This document shows, piece after piece, positions 4,422-63,956 of a stretch of 64,000 bases of DNA (its first letter is position 1; every line of letters starts with the position of its first letter). Source of the stretch: an uncultured bacterium (lineage in GTDB: Bacteria; Verrucomicrobiota; Kiritimatiellia; RFP12; UBA1067); assembly GCA_902800055.1 (NCBI GenBank), contig CADCCW010000007.1, positions 3,788-67,787 on the forward strand. Reading direction: 5' to 3'. A model generated the notes under the pieces. That model saw only the letters and a program-made list of their open reading frames with translations. It had not been told where the DNA came from and made no database searches. Both the position numbers and the translations under genes were made by a program.

Positions 4422-5834
4422 ATGTCGGTATCCTACATTTCGACGCGCACCGGCGAGCAGGCGTCCGGCGTCGAGACCGTCTTCCGCGGGCTCGCTCGCG
4501 ACGGCGGGCTGTATCTGCCCGTGGGCGTCGGCGAGATCGCCGGCATCCGCTCCGCCGACACGCTGCGCAGGGCGGAGGAGCTGGTGCTCGCGGAGTTCTT
4601 CGGCGACATGCCCGAGGGCGTCCGCAACGACGCCGTGGAGCGGCTCCTCTCGCGCTTTCCCGCCGCCGACCCGGTGCCGGTGGTCGAGAAGGGCGCGCTC
4701 CATTTCCTCGAGCTCTTCCACGGCCGCACCGGCGCGTTCAAGGACGTTGCGCTGTCGATGCTGCCGGTCTTCATGCGCTATGCCGCCGCCGGCCGCCGCG
4801 TGCTGGTGCTGACGGCGACGAGCGGCGACACCGGCTCCGCGGCGATGCAGGGCTTCGCCGGCGTGGATGGCACGGAGATCGCGGTCTTCTATCCGGCGGA
4901 GGGCACCTCGCGCGTGCAGCGGCTCCAGATGACGACGCCGTCCGAGCCCAACGTCCACGCGATCGGCATCCGCGGCAACTTCGACGATGCGCAGACGGCG
5001 GTGAAGCGCATTTTCTCCGATCCGGCGATCGCGGCGGAGGCGGCGGCGCACGGGGTTACGCTCTCGAGCGCCAACTCGATCAACACCGGGCGGCTGGTGC
5101 CGCAGGTGGCGTACTACGCGCTCGCCGGCGCGCGGCTGGGGCGCGAGTTCGACGTGGTGGTGCCGTCCGGCAACTTCGGCAACATCCTCGCCGCCTGGTA
5201 CGCGAAGCGCGTCGGCGCGCCGATTAGGCGGCTTGTCGTGGCCTCGAACGTGAACGACGTCCTCGCGCGATTCGTGAAGACGGGGATCTACGAGCCGGGG
5301 CCGGACTTCACGGTCACCAACTCCCCCTCGATGGACATCCGCATCTCGTCCAACGTCGAGCGGCTTCTCTGGGAGCTCAACTTCGACGGCGACGCCGCGG
5401 CGGCCTGCGCGGCGACGGCGCGGCTGATGTCCGACCTCCGGGAGAAGGGCCGATACGAGCTTTCCGCCGCGGCGAAGGCACGGCTCCTTGCCGAGTTCGA
5501 AGGGGGAGTGGCGACTCCGGAGGAAACCGAAGGGGAGATGCGCCGCCTGCGCGACGAGGAGGGGTATCTCGTCGACCCGCACACCGCGGTCGGCTCGTTC
5601 GTGGCGCGCCGGCTCGGGTATCCGCGTGACGGCGTCCCGTGCGTTATCGCCGCGACTGCCACGCCCTACAAGTTTCCCGAGACCTGCCGCCGCGCCTACG
5701 GCGAGGACGTTCTCGTCGATCCGCCGCCGTCCGTGGCCGGGCTGGAGCGGATGCCGGTCGCCCAGAAGCGCGTCTGCGACGTCGGGGAGATGGACGCGGT
5801 GGTGCGCGGGCTGATCGAAGGGGGCGTACAATGA
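4422..5834 (+). CDS. thrC: threonine synthase
   Basis: YISTRTGEQ...GLARDGGLYLP N-terminus, PLP-lysine context HGRTGAFKDVAL, and SSANSIN motif. 470 aa. Confidence 0.93.
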   Translation: MSVSYISTRTGEQASGVETVFRGLARDGGLYLPVGVGEIAGIRSADTLRRAEELVLAEFFGDMPEGVRNDAVERLLSRFPAADPVPVVEKGALHFLELFHGRTGAFKDVALSMLPVFMRYAAAGRRVLVLTATSGDTGSAAMQGFAGVDGTEIAVFYPAEGTSRVQRLQMTTPSEPNVHAIGIRGNFDDAQTAVKRIFSDPAIAAEAAAHGVTLSSANSINTGRLVPQVAYYALAGARLGREFDVVVPSGNFGNILAAWYAKRVGAPIRRLVVASNVNDVLARFVKTGIYEPGPDFTVTNSPSMDIRISSNVERLLWELNFDGDAAAACAATARLMSDLREKGRYELSAAAKARLLAEFEGGVATPEETEGEMRRLRDEEGYLVDPHTAVGSFVARRLGYPRDGVPCVIAATATPYKFPETCRRAYGEDVLVDPPPSVAGLERMPVAQKRVCDVGEMDAVVRGLIEGGVQ

Positions 5835-16041: not shown

Positions 16042-16076
16042 CACGAGCCACGAATCACGAACCACGAAGCACGAAA
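16042..16076 (+). repeat. tandem heptamer array CACGAAN x5
   Basis: CACGAGC CACGAAT CACGAAC CACGAAG CACGAAA. Related arrays are at 38909-38922, 45401-45435 and 51289-51323. Confidence 0.85.
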
Positions 16077-38798: not shown

Positions 38799-38858
38799 GC
38801 AGAAGAAGCGGAGGCTGTTTTTAACGCAAAGAACACAAAGAACACAGAGGGCTCTTTG
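38799..38858 (+). repeat. conserved 5' block of the P3/P4 leader
   Basis: GCAGAAGAAGCGGAGGCTGTTTTTAACGCAAAGAACACAAAGAACACAGAGGGCTCTTTG matches 51161-51220 at about 55 of 60 positions. Confidence 0.85.
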
Positions 38859-38863
38859 GAAGT

Positions 38864-38894
38864 GTTTGAGGGTTTGAGTGAAGAGTGTTTGAGT
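38864..38894 (+). repeat. tandem octamer GTTTGAGN (x3 plus one degenerate unit)
   Basis: GTTTGAGG GTTTGAGT GAAGAGT GTTTGAGT. TTTGAG also flanks both hairpin repeats. Confidence 0.7.
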
Positions 38895-45400: not shown

Positions 45401-45435
45401 GACGAACAACGAGCCGCGAATCACGAACCACGAAT
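45401..45435 (+). repeat. tandem heptamer array (G/A/C)ACGA(A/G)N x5 abutting a promoter
   Basis: GACGAAC AACGAGC CGCGAAT CACGAAC CACGAAT, ending 1 nt before the TGATATAAT extended -10. Confidence 0.8.
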
Positions 45436-50500: not shown

Positions 50501-52759
50501 ATGGGCATTATCAAAGACATCCACGGCGACATCGAGCGGGAGGCGGCGCTTCTCCTCGATAGATACCGTGATGCACTGATGCTGGAGGCGCTCACGCTTT
50601 CCTCCGGTGACTCCCATGCCGCCGAGGAGCTGGTGCTCCAGACCTTTGAGGCGTATCTCTTCGGCCGCGAGCGGTTCGACCCTTCGAAAGGCGAGCTGCT
50701 GCCGTGGCTGCGTGGCATCCTACGCAACATCCACGGCAAGGCCGGGCGTGGCAAGTCGGTGAAAGCTGTATCTTATCTCTCGCAGGACGAGCTTGAGCTT
50801 ATCAGCGAAATCCGCCGGCAAGACAACTCCACCGACGAGGAGATACTCTCCAATTCCGATTCCGAAGTGATCCGCAAGGTGATAGAGGCGCTGCCGGACA
50901 AGACGAGGCGGATAATCGTCTTGCGCTGTTTTGAGTCCGCCTCCTTCGGGGAAATCGCCCGTTTGCTCGGCATCAGCGAGATTTCGGTGAAGAATCGGTT
51001 CTATTACGCCCGCAAGCTTTTGGCGCGGCGGCTCGGCAAGCTCCTGGGCCGCGCACCCGCCATTGCGCTTGGCGTAATTCTCGCCGGGGCCTCGCTCCTC
51101 TACGCAGCGGCGGTTGTCACCGGCCTCGCCCCATCGCCGTTCGCTGCGGCGGAGCCCGCGGCAGAAGAAGCGGAGGTTGTTTTTAACGCAAAGAGCACAA
51201 AGGACACAGAGGGGGCTTTGACAGGATTGCCTGCCGTGGGGACAGACCCCGAGCCTGCCGTCTCAAGTCTCTCGTCTCAAGCCCCGGCCTCGAACCACGA
51301 ATCACGAACCACGAACCGCGAAACCAATGGGGACAGTCCCCAGCAACCCGAGGTGATAACTGCCAATTCTGAAACCAACAACGAGGAAAACACCATGAAC
51401 ACCCAATTGGTCAAATCTGCCGCGGTCAAGGCACTGGCGGCGGGCGCAATGCTCGCGGCGGCGGCAGTTCCGGCGAAGAGCACGCAGGCGACGGATCTGC
51501 CATCTGGCTACACCAAACTTGAGTACATCCAGGGTGACGGCGCGAGCGCCCGCCTCATAACCGACTACACCCCCAATCCGCAGACAGACAAAATCGAGGC
51601 GGTAATCGAGTGGCCAGCGGAGACAATCGGCGGAAACCAGCAAGTCTGGTGTGCGCGAGGCACTAGCGGGACGGACAAAACTTATACATTGTTCGCAATC
51701 GGTTCCAATCTTCGTTTTGACTACAACAAAACACGGGGAGATCTGCTTACGCCAGAAATCTCCGAGGGGGTGAAATACACCGTCACCGCCGATCGCTACA
51801 TGTTTACCTGGTCGGGCGGCAACGGGCAGACTCATACTGAAAGCACCATTTTTCAGTCGACAGGCTACCCATTAGTGCTGTTCGCGTCCTATGCCAGAGG
51901 TGTCAACACCGAAGTCGTAAACTATGGCAAGCACCGGCTATATTCCTTCAAGGTCTGGCGCTCGGATGAACTCATTCACGATTTCGTACCGTGCAGAGAC
52001 CCGAACGGCGTGGCGACGATGGTTGACGTCTGCGACAATCCCGCGACGCTGACGGTCCAGGGGACATTCATCGCCCCTGGCGACAATGGAAAGTTGCCAG
52101 CTGGATACACCGAGGTCCAGTATATTCAGGGTAACGGTGAGGACGCCCGCATCGTCACCTCTTATATTCCGCATCCGCAGACAGACAAGGCCGAGGCGGT
52201 GGTCGAGTGGCCGTCGTCGGTCGGTGATGCCTTGTCAGGAAATCAGGGTGTATGGTGCGCACGAGGCTCGACAACATCGACCGCATCCTGGACGCTGCAC
52301 ATGCTGGGCAATAGCGGCGGCAAGTTCCGATTCGACTACAACTCGGCATCAGGCAACCTTCTTGAGCCTGCGCTTTCCACAGACGTGAAGTACACCGTAA
52401 CGGCCGACAGGAATGTGGTTTCATGGTCGGGCGGCAACGGGCAGACGCACACGCCGGTTATTGGCTTTACAGCTGCCGGCGATCGAATGGTGCTTTTCGC
52501 TGTGTATAGCGGCGGAACAATCGATACATATCCAGGCAACTACGGCAAGCACCGGCTCTACTCCTTCAAGGTCTGGCGGTCGGGTGAGCTCATCCACTAC
52601 TTTGTGCCGTGCAAGGATCCGAACGGCGTAGCGACGATGGTTGATATTTGCTACAACGCGGCACTGACCATAGATGGCACCTTCACCGCCGGTCCCGAAG
52701 GGCACTACTACGACGATAAGCTCTTCAGGCCAGCGGGTACGGTGTATTACATTCTATAG
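50501..52759 (+). CDS. continuous ORF: ECF-type sigma-70 factor, hydrophobic helix, repeat-encoded linker, then P4 module protein
   Basis: Region 2 is LVLQTFEAYLFGRERFDPSKGELLPWLRGILRN. Region 4 HTH is RRIIVLRCFESASFGEIARLLGISEISVKNRFYYARKLL. No in-frame stop until 52757-52759. Whether one or two proteins are made is unresolved. Confidence 0.5.
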   Translation: MGIIKDIHGDIEREAALLLDRYRDALMLEALTLSSGDSHAAEELVLQTFEAYLFGRERFDPSKGELLPWLRGILRNIHGKAGRGKSVKAVSYLSQDELELISEIRRQDNSTDEEILSNSDSEVIRKVIEALPDKTRRIIVLRCFESASFGEIARLLGISEISVKNRFYYARKLLARRLGKLLGRAPAIALGVILAGASLLYAAAVVTGLAPSPFAAAEPAAEEAEVVFNAKSTKDTEGALTGLPAVGTDPEPAVSSLSSQAPASNHESRTTNRETNGDSPQQPEVITANSETNNEENTMNTQLVKSAAVKALAAGAMLAAAAVPAKSTQATDLPSGYTKLEYIQGDGASARLITDYTPNPQTDKIEAVIEWPAETIGGNQQVWCARGTSGTDKTYTLFAIGSNLRFDYNKTRGDLLTPEISEGVKYTVTADRYMFTWSGGNGQTHTESTIFQSTGYPLVLFASYARGVNTEVVNYGKHRLYSFKVWRSDELIHDFVPCRDPNGVATMVDVCDNPATLTVQGTFIAPGDNGKLPAGYTEVQYIQGNGEDARIVTSYIPHPQTDKAEAVVEWPSSVGDALSGNQGVWCARGSTTSTASWTLHMLGNSGGKFRFDYNSASGNLLEPALSTDVKYTVTADRNVVSWSGGNGQTHTPVIGFTAAGDRMVLFAVYSGGTIDTYPGNYGKHRLYSFKVWRSGELIHYFVPCKDPNGVATMVDICYNAALTIDGTFTAGPEGHYYDDKLFRPAGTVYYIL
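51161..51220 (+). repeat. conserved 5' block of the P3/P4 leader (copy inside the sigma ORF)
   Basis: About 55 of 60 identity to 38799-38858, including TTTTTAACGCAAAGA. Confidence 0.85.
51289..51323 (+). repeat. tandem heptamer array CACGAAN x5
   Basis: CTCGAAC CACGAAT CACGAAC CACGAAC CGCGAAA. A second 7-nt array (GTCTCAA GTCTCTC GTCTCAA) lies at 51260-51280. Confidence 0.8.
51395..52759 (+). CDS. secreted protein P4 (internal start): two tandem DFVP jelly-roll-like modules
   Basis: GAGGA SD plus ATG 51395. MNTQLVKSAAVKALAAGAMLAAAAVPA is nearly identical to the P3 start. Two modules run LP(S/A)GYT..(E/Q)YIQG(D/N)G ... YGKHRLYSFKVWRS.ELIH.FVPC.DPNGVATMVD. C-terminus is GTVYYIL*. Confidence 0.65.
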   Translation: MNTQLVKSAAVKALAAGAMLAAAAVPAKSTQATDLPSGYTKLEYIQGDGASARLITDYTPNPQTDKIEAVIEWPAETIGGNQQVWCARGTSGTDKTYTLFAIGSNLRFDYNKTRGDLLTPEISEGVKYTVTADRYMFTWSGGNGQTHTESTIFQSTGYPLVLFASYARGVNTEVVNYGKHRLYSFKVWRSDELIHDFVPCRDPNGVATMVDVCDNPATLTVQGTFIAPGDNGKLPAGYTEVQYIQGNGEDARIVTSYIPHPQTDKAEAVVEWPSSVGDALSGNQGVWCARGSTTSTASWTLHMLGNSGGKFRFDYNSASGNLLEPALSTDVKYTVTADRNVVSWSGGNGQTHTPVIGFTAAGDRMVLFAVYSGGTIDTYPGNYGKHRLYSFKVWRSGELIHYFVPCKDPNGVATMVDICYNAALTIDGTFTAGPEGHYYDDKLFRPAGTVYYIL

Positions 52760-60433: not shown

Positions 60434-60450
60434 TTTGCTTTCTCCTTTAA

Positions 60451-60554
60451 CCTTTCAACCTTTCAACTTTTCAACTTTTCAACTTTTCAACCTTTCAACC
60501 TTTCAACTTTTCAACTTTTCAACCTTTCAACCTTTCAACCCTTCAACTTTTCAA
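60451..60554 (-). repeat. 13-unit tandem octamer array (mRNA sense UUGAAARG) filling the thiH-thiC spacer
   Basis: Plus strand has 13 contiguous CYTTTCAA units (one CCCTTCAA) from 60451 to 60554. The array starts immediately after the thiH stop (60555-60557). A degenerate 14th unit merges with the thiC SD (TTAAAGGAGAAAG). Confidence 0.95.
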
Positions 60555-61667
60555 CTATATCCTGTTATCCCAGTTCTTGAAGACGACCTCCTGGCCGTTC
60601 GCCTTGATCGCTTCGTAGACTTCCTTCGGCGCGCGGCGGTCGGTGAGGGTGAACTGGGCGACGTCGGCGGCGTGCTCCTTTTCGAGCACGGCGTAGCCGC
60701 CCGGCGTCACGCGCGAGCCGGCGCTCATGTTGTCCGCCGCCACCTGGACGATGTAGTCGCGGAAGGCCGGCGCCTCGCGGGTCGAGACGGTCATGCAGCA
60801 CTGCGGGAAGCAGATGCGGAAGGCGAGCATCATCAGGTCGACGTCGCGCTCCTCGACTTCGCACGGCGGCACGAACCCGCCCTCGACGCGGCAGAAGCGC
60901 GGGAAGGCGAACTGCACCTTCGACTCGTAGCACTCCTTCATGAGGTACAGCGCGTGCGCCGCGAGGCTCGCCGCCTCCCTGCGCCACGGCGTAAGGCCGA
61001 GCAGGAAGGCGCAGCCGAGGATGCGGAAGCCGGCCCTGCCGGCGCGGAGCTGGGTCCAGAGCCGCCATTCGTAGTTGGACTTCGGCCCGGCCGGGTGGAA
61101 GTACTTGTAGCGTTCCTGGTCGTAGGTCTCCTGGAAGCAGGTGAGGGACTCGAAGCCGGCCTCGAACATCGCGCGGTAGCCTTCCTCGGTCTGCGGCGCG
61201 ACTTCGAGCGAGAGGTTGGAGAACATCGGCTTCAGGAGGCGGGCGACGTCGCAGAAGTGCTCGACCGAGTTGACCTTCGGGTCTTCGCCGGCGACGATGA
61301 GGAGGTTGTCGATGCCGCTTGCGCGGATCGCCTCGGCCTCGACGCGGATCTCGTCCAGGGTAAGGTTGCGCCGCACCGTGCCGGTGTGCTCGCGGCGGAA
61401 GTCGCAGTAGCGGCAGTGGTTGACGCAGGTGTTGCCGATGTAGAGGGGGGCGTAGACGCTGACGGTCTTGCCGTAGTACTTGATCCGCGCGAGGCGGGCC
61501 TTTTTGCGCATCGCGTCCATGAAGGGGTACGCGGCGGGCGAGATGAGGTTCAGGAGGTCGAACCAGTCGTGGCGGTCCTTCGCGAGCGACGCCTCAACCA
61601 TCTCCGGCGTCACCTTGGCGAAGTAGTCGTCGACCTGCTCGGCCGTGTATTTCAGCAGCGGGAACAT
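60555..61667 (-). CDS. thiH: 2-iminoacetate synthase (radical SAM)
   Basis: CVNHCRYCDF radical SAM cluster. Length and context between thiG and thiC fit. Confidence 0.9.
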   Translation of the reverse strand: MFPLLKYTAEQVDDYFAKVTPEMVEASLAKDRHDWFDLLNLISPAAYPFMDAMRKKARLARIKYYGKTVSVYAPLYIGNTCVNHCRYCDFRREHTGTVRRNLTLDEIRVEAEAIRASGIDNLLIVAGEDPKVNSVEHFCDVARLLKPMFSNLSLEVAPQTEEGYRAMFEAGFESLTCFQETYDQERYKYFHPAGPKSNYEWRLWTQLRAGRAGFRILGCAFLLGLTPWRREAASLAAHALYLMKECYESKVQFAFPRFCRVEGGFVPPCEVEERDVDLMMLAFRICFPQCCMTVSTREAPAFRDYIVQVAADNMSAGSRVTPGGYAVLEKEHAADVAQFTLTDRRAPKEVYEAIKANGQEVVFKNWDNRI

Positions 61668-61675
61668 CGGAGATA

Positions 61676-62440
61676 CTACTTGAAGATGTCCATGGGGCTC
61701 GTCGCGCTCGCGGTGGCGCGGGAGGAGGGCGGACCGGCCTTGAGCGCAATTTCGGCGGCCTGGACGGCGAGGCCGAACGCCTTCGCCATCGCCACCGGGT
61801 CGTCCGCCGCGGCGACCGCGGTGTTGGCGAGGACGGCGTCAGCGCCGAGCTCGATCGCCTCGGCGGCGTGGGAGGGGAGGCCGATGCCGGCGTCGACGAC
61901 GACGGGCACGTGGCTCTGCTCGACGATGATCTCGATCATGTCGCGGGTGCGGATGCCGCGGTTGGAGCCGATGGGGCTGCCGAGCGGCATCACCGCCGCG
62001 GCGCCGGCGTCCTCGCAGTGGCGCGCCAGGACGGGGTCGGCGTTGATGTAGGGGAGGACGACCATCCCGAGCTTCGCGCATTCCCTCACCGCCTCCAGCG
62101 TCTCGACCGGGTCGGGCAGCAGGTAGCGCGCGTCGGGGTGGACCTCGATCTTGATCCAGTTGTAGCCGGCGGCCTTGCCAAGCTTGGCGATGCGCACGGC
62201 CTCGGCTGCGTTGCGCGCGCCGGAGGTGTTGAGCATCACCTCGACCTTCGAGCGGTCGATGACGCCGAGGATGTCGTCGTGCGCGGCGTCGTCCTCGTGG
62301 ACGCGCGTGAGCGCGGTGGTGACGAGCTCGGTGCCGCTCGCCGCGATGGCGGCCTTCAGGAGCTCGCCCGAGGCGAACTTGCCCGTTCCCAGAAAGAAGC
62401 GGCTCGAGAACTTCCTGCCGCCGATGATTAGGTCTTTCAT
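61676..62440 (-). CDS. thiG: thiazole synthase
   Basis: LGTGKF, WIKIEVH (Schiff-base Lys context), VMPLGSPIGSNRGI. Confidence 0.93.
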   Translation of the reverse strand: MKDLIIGGRKFSSRFFLGTGKFASGELLKAAIAASGTELVTTALTRVHEDDAAHDDILGVIDRSKVEVMLNTSGARNAAEAVRIAKLGKAAGYNWIKIEVHPDARYLLPDPVETLEAVRECAKLGMVVLPYINADPVLARHCEDAGAAAVMPLGSPIGSNRGIRTRDMIEIIVEQSHVPVVVDAGIGLPSHAAEAIELGADAVLANTAVAAADDPVAMAKAFGLAVQAAEIALKAGPPSSRATASATSPMDIFK

Positions 62441-62462
62441 TTTTCTTTCCTTTCAAATTTGA

Positions 62463-62588
62463 TTTTTAACACAGAGGCACAGAGACTCAGAGACACAGAG
62501 TTAGAAGCTGGGGTTGCCACCCCAGACCCCGCGCCGAAGGCGCACTCAAAAACCTCTGTGCCTTTGTGCTTATGTGTCTCTTTGTTAT
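62463..62588. repeat. long imperfect hairpin built from CACAGAGN octamers with two internal GC hairpins
   Basis: Left arm is TTTTTAACACAGAGGCACAGAGACTCAGAGACACAGAG (62463-62500). Right arm is CCTCTGTGCCTTTGTGCTTATGTGTCTCTTTGTTAT (62553-62588). Inner hairpins are CTGGGGTTGCCACCCCAG (62508-62525) and GCGCCGAAGGCGC (62531-62543). Confidence 0.8.
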
Positions 62589-62635
62589 GACAAATCATTT
62601 GTGTAGGATCTCTATTGTCGTTTTAGGTTAAAGCG

Positions 62636-63010
62636 TTAGTTGACTATGCGCTTGAATCCGGAAATAAGTGTTTCCTTTCCGAAATTCACAAGCAGCCCCA
62701 AATGCAAATTCATGAGGCGAAGATATGTAAGAGTTTGAATTGCAAAGATCGGATTGTCTTTGTCTGTCGCTTTGCATTCGACAACGACACGCCCCTCCAC
62801 AAGCAGATCGATTCGCAGCGGATCGCCCACGACAACGCCCTTGTAGACTACCGGGACATGAACCTCCTTTTCGACCTTAAAACCTCTTTGTGCCAATTCG
62901 TAGGCAAGCGCATCTTGATACACTGACTCAAGCAATCCAGGACCCCCAAGCGTCCGATGCACAGTTATGGCCGCATCAAGCACCTCCTTGCTGATATCAT
63001 TATCTTCCAT
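62636..63010 (-). CDS. GxxExxY protein (PD-(D/E)XK nuclease fold family)
   Basis: 124 aa. GPGLLESVYQDALAYEL contains G-x-x-E-x-x-Y. Also RIDLLVEGRVVVECK. Much lower GC than its neighbours. Confidence 0.85.
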   Translation of the reverse strand: MEDNDISKEVLDAAITVHRTLGGPGLLESVYQDALAYELAQRGFKVEKEVHVPVVYKGVVVGDPLRIDLLVEGRVVVECKATDKDNPIFAIQTLTYLRLMNLHLGLLVNFGKETLISGFKRIVN

Positions 63011-63017
63011 TTCTGTT

Positions 63018-63054
63018 CTCTGTGCCTCCGTGTCTCTGTGTCTCTGTGTTAAAA
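63018..63054 (-). repeat. CACAGAGN-type repeat upstream of the GxxExxY gene
   Basis: Minus strand reads TTTTAACACAGAGACACAGAGACACGGAGGCACAGAG and runs into the SD/ATG of the GxxExxY gene. Confidence 0.8.
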
Positions 63055-63061
63055 TCTCTCT

Positions 63062-63658
63062 CTATATTTCCTCGCCCAGCAACATTGCGACGACGCTGTT
63101 GGCTTGCATTGCCGCGGCGATTCCGACCCGGGGCGAGGCGGGCGCGGCGCTTTCTCCGACGGCAGTCTCGCCGTCGCCGACGGCGACGATGTTCCCCATC
63201 TGCCTCACCTGCATTGCGTTCGACCGCCCCCAGCCAGCCAGCCCGCTTGCAGTGACGATCCGCTTGCCCGATGGCGCAAGCGCCGCGACAAGCATCGCCT
63301 TTGCCTCGACGACGTCGAATGCCTCGACCACGATGTCGCAGTTGGCGAAGGTTTCCCGCGCCGATGCCGCGTCTAGCCGCAGGTCGACGGAGCGGATGTC
63401 CGCGTCCGGGTCGATCCGGAGCAGGTTCGCCTTGAGCGCCTCTACCTTCTTGAGTCCAAGTTGGTCGCGGAAGAAGAACTGGCGGTTGAGGTTCGACTCG
63501 TTGACGACGTCGAAGTCGACGACGGTCAGGTTCCTTACGCCGGCGCGCACGAGGTGCATCGCGCAGTTGGAGCCGAGTCCGCCGGCGCCGGCGATCCCCA
63601 CTCGCGCTGCTTCAAGTACGGCGCGCTCGCTGGGGGTGAGATAGGTGTTTGCGGACAT
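63062..63658 (-). CDS. thiF: ThiF family adenylyltransferase (ThiS activation)
   Basis: GIAGAGGLGSN nucleotide-binding loop. 198 aa short ThiF/MoeB form. Adjacent to thiS. Confidence 0.85.
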   Translation of the reverse strand: MSANTYLTPSERAVLEAARVGIAGAGGLGSNCAMHLVRAGVRNLTVVDFDVVNESNLNRQFFFRDQLGLKKVEALKANLLRIDPDADIRSVDLRLDAASARETFANCDIVVEAFDVVEAKAMLVAALAPSGKRIVTASGLAGWGRSNAMQVRQMGNIVAVGDGETAVGESAAPASPRVGIAAAMQANSVVAMLLGEEI

Positions 63659-63659
63659 C

Positions 63660-63860
63660 TCAGCCTCCCGCCGTCAGCTTGAACACATCGAGCGCGGCGC
63701 CTTCAGCGAGAATTAGCGCCTGGAGGTCGGATCCAGGCGCATACACCTCGCCGCCGTATTCGACAATCGCCTTGGCCGGGTCCACGCCCCGCGCCGAGAG
63801 AAACTCGGCCACCGTCTTCGCCGTCGTCTCGACGGCCTCGCCTTGATAGACAATGTTCAT
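63660..63860 (-). CDS. thiS: sulfur carrier protein ThiS
   Basis: 66 aa with a C-terminal GG (…FKLTAGG*). Confidence 0.88.
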   Translation of the reverse strand: MNIVYQGEAVETTAKTVAEFLSARGVDPAKAIVEYGGEVYAPGSDLQALILAEGAALDVFKLTAGG

Positions 63861-63863
63861 CTG

Positions 63864-63950
63864 CTTCCTCCGCCGGCATTACCCGGATCAGGTTTTGCGG
63901 GTCTGTTCTCAGCCAAGACGCGCCCTGCGCCCCAGCACCCCGTCGTTAGA
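63864..63950 (-). promoter_or_regulatory. TPP (THI-box) riboswitch
   Basis: Minus strand reads ACGACGGGGTGCTGGGGC...GGCTGAGAACAGACCCGCAAAACCTGATCCGGGTAATGCCGGCGGAGGAAGCAGATG. It contains the conserved GGGGTGC, CTGAGA, ACCTGATC-GGTAATGCC blocks directly upstream of thiS. Confidence 0.9.
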
Positions 63951-63956
63951 TTGTGT

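Follow-up and report, generated by a model that had tools for sequence, protein, structure and literature searches.

A GxxExxY nuclease-fold gene framed by mirror-image octamer arms between thiF and thiG in the thiamine operon of a rumen bacterium

Introduction

Free-standing homing endonuclease genes include that of I-Ssp6803I, a homing enzyme of the PD-(D/E)XK fold. Another kind of inserted gene is found in ribosomal RNA, where 23S rRNA intervening sequences carry an open reading frame (ORF) of the S23p/PF05635 type within a long stem, located in a 23S rRNA helix, and are excised by RNase III. The present report concerns a 64,000-nucleotide (64-kb) stretch of contig CADCCW010000007.1 from an uncultured rumen bacterium, called the window below, in which a gene of the GxxExxY family, encoding a predicted PD-(D/E)XK nuclease, lies between thiF and thiG of the thiamine (thi) operon and is bracketed by inverted repeats made of tandem octamers (arms). 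In the REPIN/RAYT system, a gene is likewise flanked by inverted short repeats that are also dispersed without the gene as intergenic hairpin doublets, and the two systems share largely vertical inheritance, purifying selection and the lack of target duplications (PMC3116915, PMC3337134, PMC5581495).

Several features set the present locus apart from REPIN/RAYT. Instead of an HUH/Y1 (IS200/IS605 TnpA-like) transposase, the gene encodes a protein of the PD-(D/E)XK fold, the arms consist of 3-4 tandem octamers and not of a single palindrome, and the gene resides inside operons and is co-oriented with them. A full-text search of searchable papers, with the arm sequences and with GxxExxY/PF13366, found no description of the gene-plus-arm architecture. 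The sole published trace found comes from Geobacter metallireducens, for which paired sites made of four tandem octanucleotide repeats were described without a gene (PMC2700814).

The thiF-thiG insert represents one copy of a gene-plus-arms unit, which comprises a GxxExxY gene set in mirror-image arrays of 3-4 octamers and, here, a partial hairpin module (A2-loop-B). The unit is widespread, without a description found in the searchable literature. Taken as a whole, the data are best explained by a nuclease-plus-arms unit that was spread by recombination, a reading to which we give slightly better than even weight.

Architecture of the Cassette

The elements of the cassette, in window coordinates and in the order of the operon strand, are as follows.

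63018 to 63054, minus strand: arm A1, 37 nt, a tandem repeat of period 8 with the operon-strand sequence TTTTAA(CACAGAGN)x4; 7 nt separate its end from the start codon (ATG) of the nuclease gene
62636 to 63010, minus strand: GxxExxY / PD-(D/E)XK nuclease-fold gene, 124 aa (TIGR04256, 132.5 bits against a cut-off of 35; PF13366 PDDEXK_3, E 8e-37)
62554 to 62587, minus strand: arm A2, the third copy, decayed and pointing the same way as A1; it forms a 34-nt inverted repeat with B
62501 to 62553, minus strand: loop between A2 and B, 53 nt, with two GC hairpins (fold of 62496-62556)
62464 to 62500, minus strand: arm B, (CTCTGTGN)x4 TTAAAA on the operon strand, forming an inverted repeat with A1

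The gap between thiF and thiG is 621 nt long and holds a single ORF (62636-63010), which runs in the same direction as both neighbours. It is a low-GC island in a genome of 66% GC: its GC content falls as low as 0.39, where the window averages 0.657. Along the operon strand, the thiF stop codon is followed by AGAGAGA, A1, 7 nt, the ORF, 47 nt, A2, the 53-nt loop, B and the ribosome-binding site (RBS) of thiG.

The protein has only two Pfam/NCBIfam matches, PDDEXK_3 (126.6 bits, cut-off 22) and GxxExxY. It contains both the eponymous motif (G25-L-L-E28-S-V-Y31) and the catalytic triad (D68, E78, K80); across 30 diverse relatives of approximately 50% identity, G25, E28, D68 and K80 do not vary, and conservation is at least 90% for Y31 and E78. 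An AlphaFold2 (AF2) model (pLDDT 96.2, pTM 0.88) has Cas4 SSO0001 as its top structural match in Foldseek (E 9e-4, TM 0.58), followed by lambda-exonuclease-type enzymes and then the R2 restriction-like endonuclease. A sequence search of the PDB returned no match, nor did the PHROGs phage families, and the PADLOC defence models gave only sub-threshold Cas4 matches (E 0.03-0.05). Many genomes carry many GxxExxY paralogs, and the PF13366/TIGR04256 family comprises 16,083 clusters at 50% identity (E up to 0.001). Many members are tandem double proteins of about 275 aa with two matched stretches (P0121, P0124, P0128-P0130 and others).

Arms A1 (63018-63054) and B (62464-62500), each 37 nt, are 89% complementary and 517 nt apart, while A2 (62554-62587) pairs with 62467-62500 at 76% complementarity across a gap of 53 nt. 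The pattern CACAGAGNCACAGAG, allowing at most 2 mismatches, occurs 7 times in the window, always at the thiF-thiG insert; 0.33 occurrences are expected, and 7 were reached in 0 of 100 shuffles. A2 is better preserved in L001 and L018, where it reads TTTTAACACAGAGATACAGAGGCGCAAAGGCACAGAG or ...CACAGAT. The 146-nt A2-loop-B module folds into one hairpin containing two GC hairpins (62531-62543 and 62508-62525). The original prediction, made from the letters of the window, had described a co-oriented low-GC GxxExxY gene of 124 aa, imperfect inverted CACAGAG octamer repeats around it, and a third inward-facing copy that forms a local hairpin with two GC hairpins on the thiG side. The profile matches, the GC profile and the repeat and fold statistics bear out all of this, and the coordinates it gave for gene and repeats are right to within 1-2 nt.

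Other short tandem arrays are also present between genes of the window (16042-16075, 45409-45435, 51291-51322 and 38823-38894). They consist of CACGAAC/CACGAAT heptamers, AACACAAAG 9-mers and GTGTTTGAG units, and several are headed TTTTAAC, like the cassette arms.

Distribution of the Unit across Phyla

The generality of the unit was examined with 80 GxxExxY loci, which a 9-sequence alignment had found in species-representative genomes spanning about 16 phyla. A survey of the flanks of other GxxExxY copies had been proposed with the original prediction, and inverted repeats that bracket the gene and score above the 99th percentile of position-shifted controls were detected at 54 of the 80 loci. 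The arms consist of 3-4 tandem units, with a period of 8 in 43 of 49 loci, and share the core C-R-C-A-R-A-G (consensus C-R-C-A-R-A-G-N), seen as CGCAAAG, CACAAAG, CACAGAG, CGCAGAG and CGCGGAG. The two arms of a locus mirror each other in register, down to unit variants and heads (0.88 identity versus 0.63 when slid by one unit, a comparison that the choice of the best diagonal favours somewhat). On the protein tree, the arm-core class changes 11 times, whereas 300 label shuffles gave 18.7 changes on average and never fewer than 13; the host phylum changes 27 times on the same tree. Arm type is thus found to follow the protein tree rather than the host phylum, and protein and arms travel together and cross phyla. 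Both neighbours are co-oriented with the gene in 42 of 75 loci from other phyla by a crude ORF-based check, and hence co-orientation with an operon is not universal for the family.

Several single loci have their own arrangements. In L058 (about 1100-2250), a GxxExxY gene has a complete gene-less hairpin on each side, the two hairpins being direct copies, and two Pyrinomonadaceae genomes (L070 and L090, around 2460-2930) have a reversed order, B-gene-A, with the heads adjoining the gene. A Prevotella genome (L047) has two GxxExxY genes within 2 kb (2501-2869 and 4422-4742), the first of which has arms of 9-nt CACAGATNN units.

It might be supposed that the arrays are features of the host, either sites of nucleoid or global regulators or products of slippage of the RBS sequence, and that the nuclease gene is just one of several occupants. 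The G. metallireducens sites lend this some substance, being gene-less octamer pairs on opposite strands that were put forward as putative IHF/HU sites (PMC2700814). They resemble the present arms in consisting of pairs of four tandem octanucleotides, on opposite strands, at variable distance and in intergenic DNA, and their class TCTCCGTS resembles the CACGGAG-type arms of L030; they differ in that they were reported without a linked gene, were read as regulator sites and were given no GxxExxY link (PMC2700814). The other intergenic short tandem arrays of the window's genome, and the unrelated arrays found at the thiF-thiG junction in relatives (see below), are also in keeping with a host origin. 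However, arm type follows the GxxExxY protein tree, the core C-R-C-A-R-A-G recurs beside one protein family in about 16 phyla, the arms are mirrored down to unit variants and heads and so are not two independent arrays, and CACAGAG arrays occur in the window only at the GxxExxY gene. A host-feature origin is therefore regarded as improbable.

The Thiamine Operon

The operon runs on the minus strand in the order thiamine pyrophosphate (TPP) riboswitch, thiS, thiF, insert, thiG, thiH and thiC, its genes having been named from NCBIfam and Pfam profile matches. The features that adjoin the cassette or govern the operon are listed below; the riboswitch match was made on L008 (2489-2593, the same contig) and then mapped to window coordinates.

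63848 to 63952, minus strand: TPP riboswitch ahead of thiS, at the operon start (RF00059, 57.2 bits against a gathering score of 54.3, E 5e-10)
63062 to 63658, minus strand: thiF, the upstream neighbour (NF006395, E 7e-70; PF00899)
62441 to 62463, minus strand: RBS spacer of thiG, AATCAAATTTGAAAGGAAAGAAAA on the operon strand, common to filled and solo-arm alleles
61676 to 62440, minus strand: thiG, the downstream neighbour (PF05690, E 3e-94)

The operon had been described from the letters as riboswitch-controlled, and the RF00059 match ahead of thiS agrees with this. No promoter-like or terminator-like site was found in the cassette; transcription of the nuclease gene most likely comes by read-through from the thi promoter, which the riboswitch controls. 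The suggestion that the insert may impose termination between thiF and thiG thus finds no support in the sequence of the cassette.

The 5′ edge of the operon adjoins a variable region. In strains with identical ThiG (L008-L014), the genes upstream of thiS and the riboswitch are entirely different, and include an HTH_36 gene, an AbiEi/AbiEii pair, a glycosyltransferase with UDP-galactopyranose mutase, and others.

States of the thiF-thiG Junction

As an empty-site test, the thiF-thiG junctions were compared among contigs that encode a ThiG 100% identical to that of the window. Filled junctions are present in the window, L008 and L001, and the same 630-nt junction occurs in L003 and L004, which were found via the cassette protein; the filled spacers measure 621-630 nt. 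Gene-less junctions have a spacer of 64 nt in L009-L014 and L016 and of 61 nt in L017, with the sequence TAG-CTCA-(CTCTGTGN)4 TTAAAAATCAAATTTGAAAGGAAAGAAAA-ATG. The difference corresponds to the following segment.

62505 to 63061, no strand assigned: 557 nt that the solo-arm strains of the window's species lack (junctions of the window and L008 compared with those of L009-L014, L016 and L017)

Arm B is the sole arm kept in the gene-less strains. It is identical to that of the window in L009, L010, L012, L014 and L016, has one different base in L011 and L013, and differs slightly in L017. At the edges of the missing segment, the only shared microhomology is AG/CT. The cassette is dispensable and polymorphic within the species. 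The persisting thiG-proximal arm B may be a deletion scar or may have preceded the cassette.

Further states were obtained from ThiF relatives at 83-88% identity. In a related lineage (L111-L114), the junction is unoccupied, with thiF and thiG 2 nt apart (TAG-GA-ATG), so that the empty-site check yields both same-ThiG contigs without the 557 nt and a naive junction in relatives. A solo arm with a different core, (NCTCTGCG)4 TTAAAAAA, is found in L115-L117 and L121-L124 (L115, 2398-2467), and an unrelated (CGTGTAGAN)3 array occupies the junction of L119 (2398-2446). The cassette itself exists in a simple form, A-gene-B (L020, L021, L023, L024 and L137-L146), and in a complex form (window, L001, L018 and L019). 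Filled alleles occur in both major clades of the thiF+thiG tree. L119, which has the unrelated array, is very close to the cassette-bearing L020 (synonymous divergence, dS, of thiG 0.115), which implies fast turnover at this junction.

A search for target-site duplications, also proposed with the original prediction, found none at the thiF-thiG junction or in 5 other contexts inspected. A likeness between the 3′ end of thiF and the RBS spacer of thiG was considered as a duplication and rejected; it is attributed to RBS constraint.

Age, Selection, and Exchange between Lineages

Synonymous and nonsynonymous (dN) divergence were estimated from codon-aware alignments. Between the window and L019, L020, L021, L023 and L024, the cassette gene has a dS of 0.79-1.26, a dN of 0.025-0.033 and a dN/dS of about 0.03, and the flanking thiF and thiG have a dS of 0.43-1.21. 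Constraint on the cassette gene equals that on ThiG and exceeds that on ThiF. Since its dS matches that of its flanks and its dN/dS is about 0.03, the cassette appears to have resided at the junction for approximately as long as these species have been apart, with its protein kept by selection. The idea that the cassette landed recently in the operon is thus not sustained. The gene-less strains of the window's species are at a dS of only 0.04-0.08 from the window. Because the cassette is old at this junction, these strains are rather more probably deletions that left arm B behind than sites that were never invaded.

A different pattern is observed in a sister clade, in which the dS of the cassette gene is 0-0.14 versus 0.17-0.65 for thiF and 0.15-0.57 for thiG, that is, 3 to more than 30 times below the flanks. 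L137 and L138, for example, differ at 1 of 375 positions in the gene and at 0 of 50 in the 3′ spacer plus arm B, compared with 63 of 597 in thiF, 16 of 58 in the spacer plus arm A and 40 of 765 in thiG; their identical tract begins just inside arm A and fades approximately 100 nt into thiG. L139 and L142 have no difference in the 474 nt of arm A, gene and arm B, but their thiF and thiG differ at 54 and 39 positions, respectively. An intrinsically low synonymous rate of the gene is ruled out, since the same gene has a dS of about 1 relative to the window's allele; the sister-clade alleles would therefore have swept recently across diverged lineages on short conversion tracts. Judged from these alignments, the divergence pattern points to cassette-centred gene conversion. 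This homing-like disagreement with the flanks was seen within the sister clade and not between the window's species and the others, and ordinary recombination may also account for it.

The cassette loosely resembles free-standing homing endonuclease genes, as far as sequence comparison goes. It is a small nuclease gene without a transposase, present or absent at a fixed site, its divergence between lineages lies far below that of its flanks, and its co-conversion-like tracts fade into the neighbouring gene. It differs from them in being framed by repeat arms and in the long vertical residence, without decay, in the window's lineage.

Between L020 and L021, thiF itself is a mosaic, in which blocks of 82-93% identity alternate with blocks of 67-73% and one indel is present, which indicates that these rumen lineages recombine frequently.

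Copies at Other Loci and Gene-Less Hairpins

Copies of the protein that are 74-79% identical occur in other operons, such as between rfb-like genes, after glycosyltransferases and elsewhere, and all have arms of the form TTTTAA(CACAGAGN)3-4 ... (NCTCTGTG)3-4 TTAAAA, which often abut the start and stop codons. A copy of 46% identity lies between korA and korB and has arms of the CACGGAG type. Near-identical copies at different loci were not found: P0088 was always in one context and P0030 always in thiF-thiG.

Hairpins with the same arms and no gene were detected in L001 (of the window's species), L022 and L026. That of L001 lies in the thiH-thiC spacer and has a 20-nt loop. It was considered whether such hairpins are deletion derivatives comparable to miniature inverted-repeat transposable elements (MITEs), and this was rejected, as their loops are unrelated to the gene. 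In the rumen metagenome X16, depth over the arms is 3-8 times that over the flanks, and short-loop hairpins number at least 5. As regards the thiH-thiC spacer, the window has 13-14 TTGAAARG units there (60444-60555) where L001 (3990-4095) has its gene-less CACAGAG hairpin; one intercistronic spacer in one species thus holds two different repeat elements. Viral contigs contained no CACAGAG arms and only 2 distant relatives, so that carriage by phages is unsupported.

The original prediction had taken the insert for a small mobile cassette without a transposase of its own. Much of this stands: the unit is discrete, present in some strains and absent in others, found in other operons, accompanied by gene-less partners, exchanged between lineages and devoid of a transposase. 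On the other side, it is old and strongly constrained at this junction, and no recent jump between loci was seen.

The terminal inverted repeats, the gene-less partners and the occurrence in several contexts would also fit a non-autonomous transposon that is moved in trans by a transposase encoded elsewhere (e.g., of the IS200/IS605 or DDE type), with the GxxExxY gene as a passenger. Yet transposons and MITEs differ from the cassette in several ways, given that no target-site duplication was found at the 6 contexts inspected, no transposase is in the unit, and the gene-less loops, unrelated to the gene, are not its deletion derivatives. Moreover, no identical copies were found at different loci, and the same cargo family lies beside such arms in many phyla, which would not be expected of a passenger. 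This explanation is considered very unlikely.

Arms at the RNA and DNA Levels

In the minimum-energy fold predicted for the 621-nt operon-strand RNA (-215.5 kcal/mol, z -5.4), A1 pairs with B around the whole ORF; it is the outer arm A1, and not the third copy A2, that pairs with the thiG-proximal arm in the full-length RNA. The local A2-loop-B hairpin has a z of -5.5 on the operon strand and -7.1 on the opposite strand, and the loop (62496-62556) folds at -27.8 kcal/mol (z -2.6). One of its GC hairpins (62531-62543) has a UUC loop and a 5-bp GC stem on the operon strand (GCGCC-UUC-GGCGC), and L019, from another species, has a homologous loop whose stems differ in sequence. Cassette sequence was also found in metatranscriptome contigs, one of which spans the end of thiF, A1 and the start of the gene; these are Logan contigs of depth 2-4 from mixed rumen communities, which show the presence of the sequence and not ends, strand or quantity.

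These features would suit an intervening sequence of the operon, in which a double-stranded RNA stem is selected and cut by RNase III, freeing the nuclease mRNA and splitting the thiF and thiG transcripts, with any behaviour at the DNA level being secondary. The pairing of A1 with B around the ORF, which in several copies fills the loop nearly from start to stop codon, the UUC-capped GC stem retained in L019 with other stem sequences, and the RNA-library contig across thiF, A1 and the gene start all speak for it. The 23S rRNA intervening sequences are similar in having an ORF in a long stem inside a transcript that must function, and the stem here is a plausible RNase III substrate; they differ in that the host here is an mRNA operon, the ORF belongs to PF13366 and the arms carry no RNA-strand signature. 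With regard to the last point, mismatches in 61 arm pairs comprise 62 sense-strand G.U and 54 A.C (p = 0.52), in a comparison where a 2:1 bias is detectable, and G.U is thus no commoner than A.C. In addition, the antisense fold of the local hairpin is at least as good as the sense fold, and gene-less hairpins and solo arms exist with no mRNA to release. Selection for the RNA stem is accordingly judged unlikely, less so than the host-feature origin.

Since there is no sense-strand G.U excess, the mirroring of the arms looks like a DNA-level property, arising from hairpin or cruciform pairing or from copying of one arm from the other. The 37-bp RNA stem then appears as a physical consequence, with no sign of being the selected trait, and may still be cut by RNase III.

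A Possible Mechanism and Its Weak Points

If the unit was spread by recombination, as favoured here, the encoded nuclease would recognise the arms or use them as its DNA substrate, binding or cutting the array or the hairpin. The resulting breaks would be repaired by recombination that copies the gene, for which the arms and the flanking genes would provide the homology, and the cassette could in this way be spread and maintained without a transposase or target duplication. This mechanism, in which the predicted nuclease acts on its own arms and is spread by recombinational repair, is offered tentatively, as we consider it the less probable side of the question.

A number of observations weigh against spread driven by the nuclease. 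No member of the family is known to cut DNA, or to bind or cleave such arms, and the function of PF13366 is given as unknown in a Pfam survey, the sole survey found that mentions the family (PMC3424549). In the scan, 26 of the 80 relatives had no arms, and the topology of the unit varies, being B-gene-A or hairpin-gene-hairpin at some loci. Identical proteins always occur in a single context, so that no recent jump between loci is seen. The exchanged tracts end in thiF and thiG as well as at an arm, and no nuclease would be needed to account for them if ordinary homologous recombination was accompanied by a selective sweep. In metagenome assemblies, cassette and flanks of co-resident strains could in principle have been mixed, although the divergence pattern recurs across independent assemblies. 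Finally, long vertical persistence at a dN/dS of 0.03 fits a gene useful to its host equally as well as a selfish one.

A bolder extension can be formulated, in which GxxExxY nucleases and their octamer arms constitute a previously undescribed, phylum-spanning class of mobile DNA, in which the nuclease acts on the arm arrays, the arms serve in addition as portable homology, and the gene is copied by break repair into gene-less hairpins and homologous junctions; we regard this as doubtful on present evidence. Under such an extension, the class might be seen as the equivalent of REPIN/RAYT for PD-(D/E)XK proteins, behaving in a homing-like way, and the thiF-thiG junction as a natural time series from naive through solo arm and simple to complex states, a picture that is equally speculative.

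Significance for the GxxExxY Family

For the very large PF13366/TIGR04256 family, which has had no known function, the octamer arms represent a conserved DNA partner and a concrete candidate substrate. The thiF-thiG locus adds population-level data at one site, where every junction state from unoccupied to complex, strong purifying selection on the gene and cassette-centred exchange are all seen. Should the nuclease indeed act on its arms, the unit would exemplify a new strategy by which a gene persists and spreads in essential operons without a transposase, and the octamer paired sites of Geobacter, noted but not understood (PMC2700814), would be explained as well.

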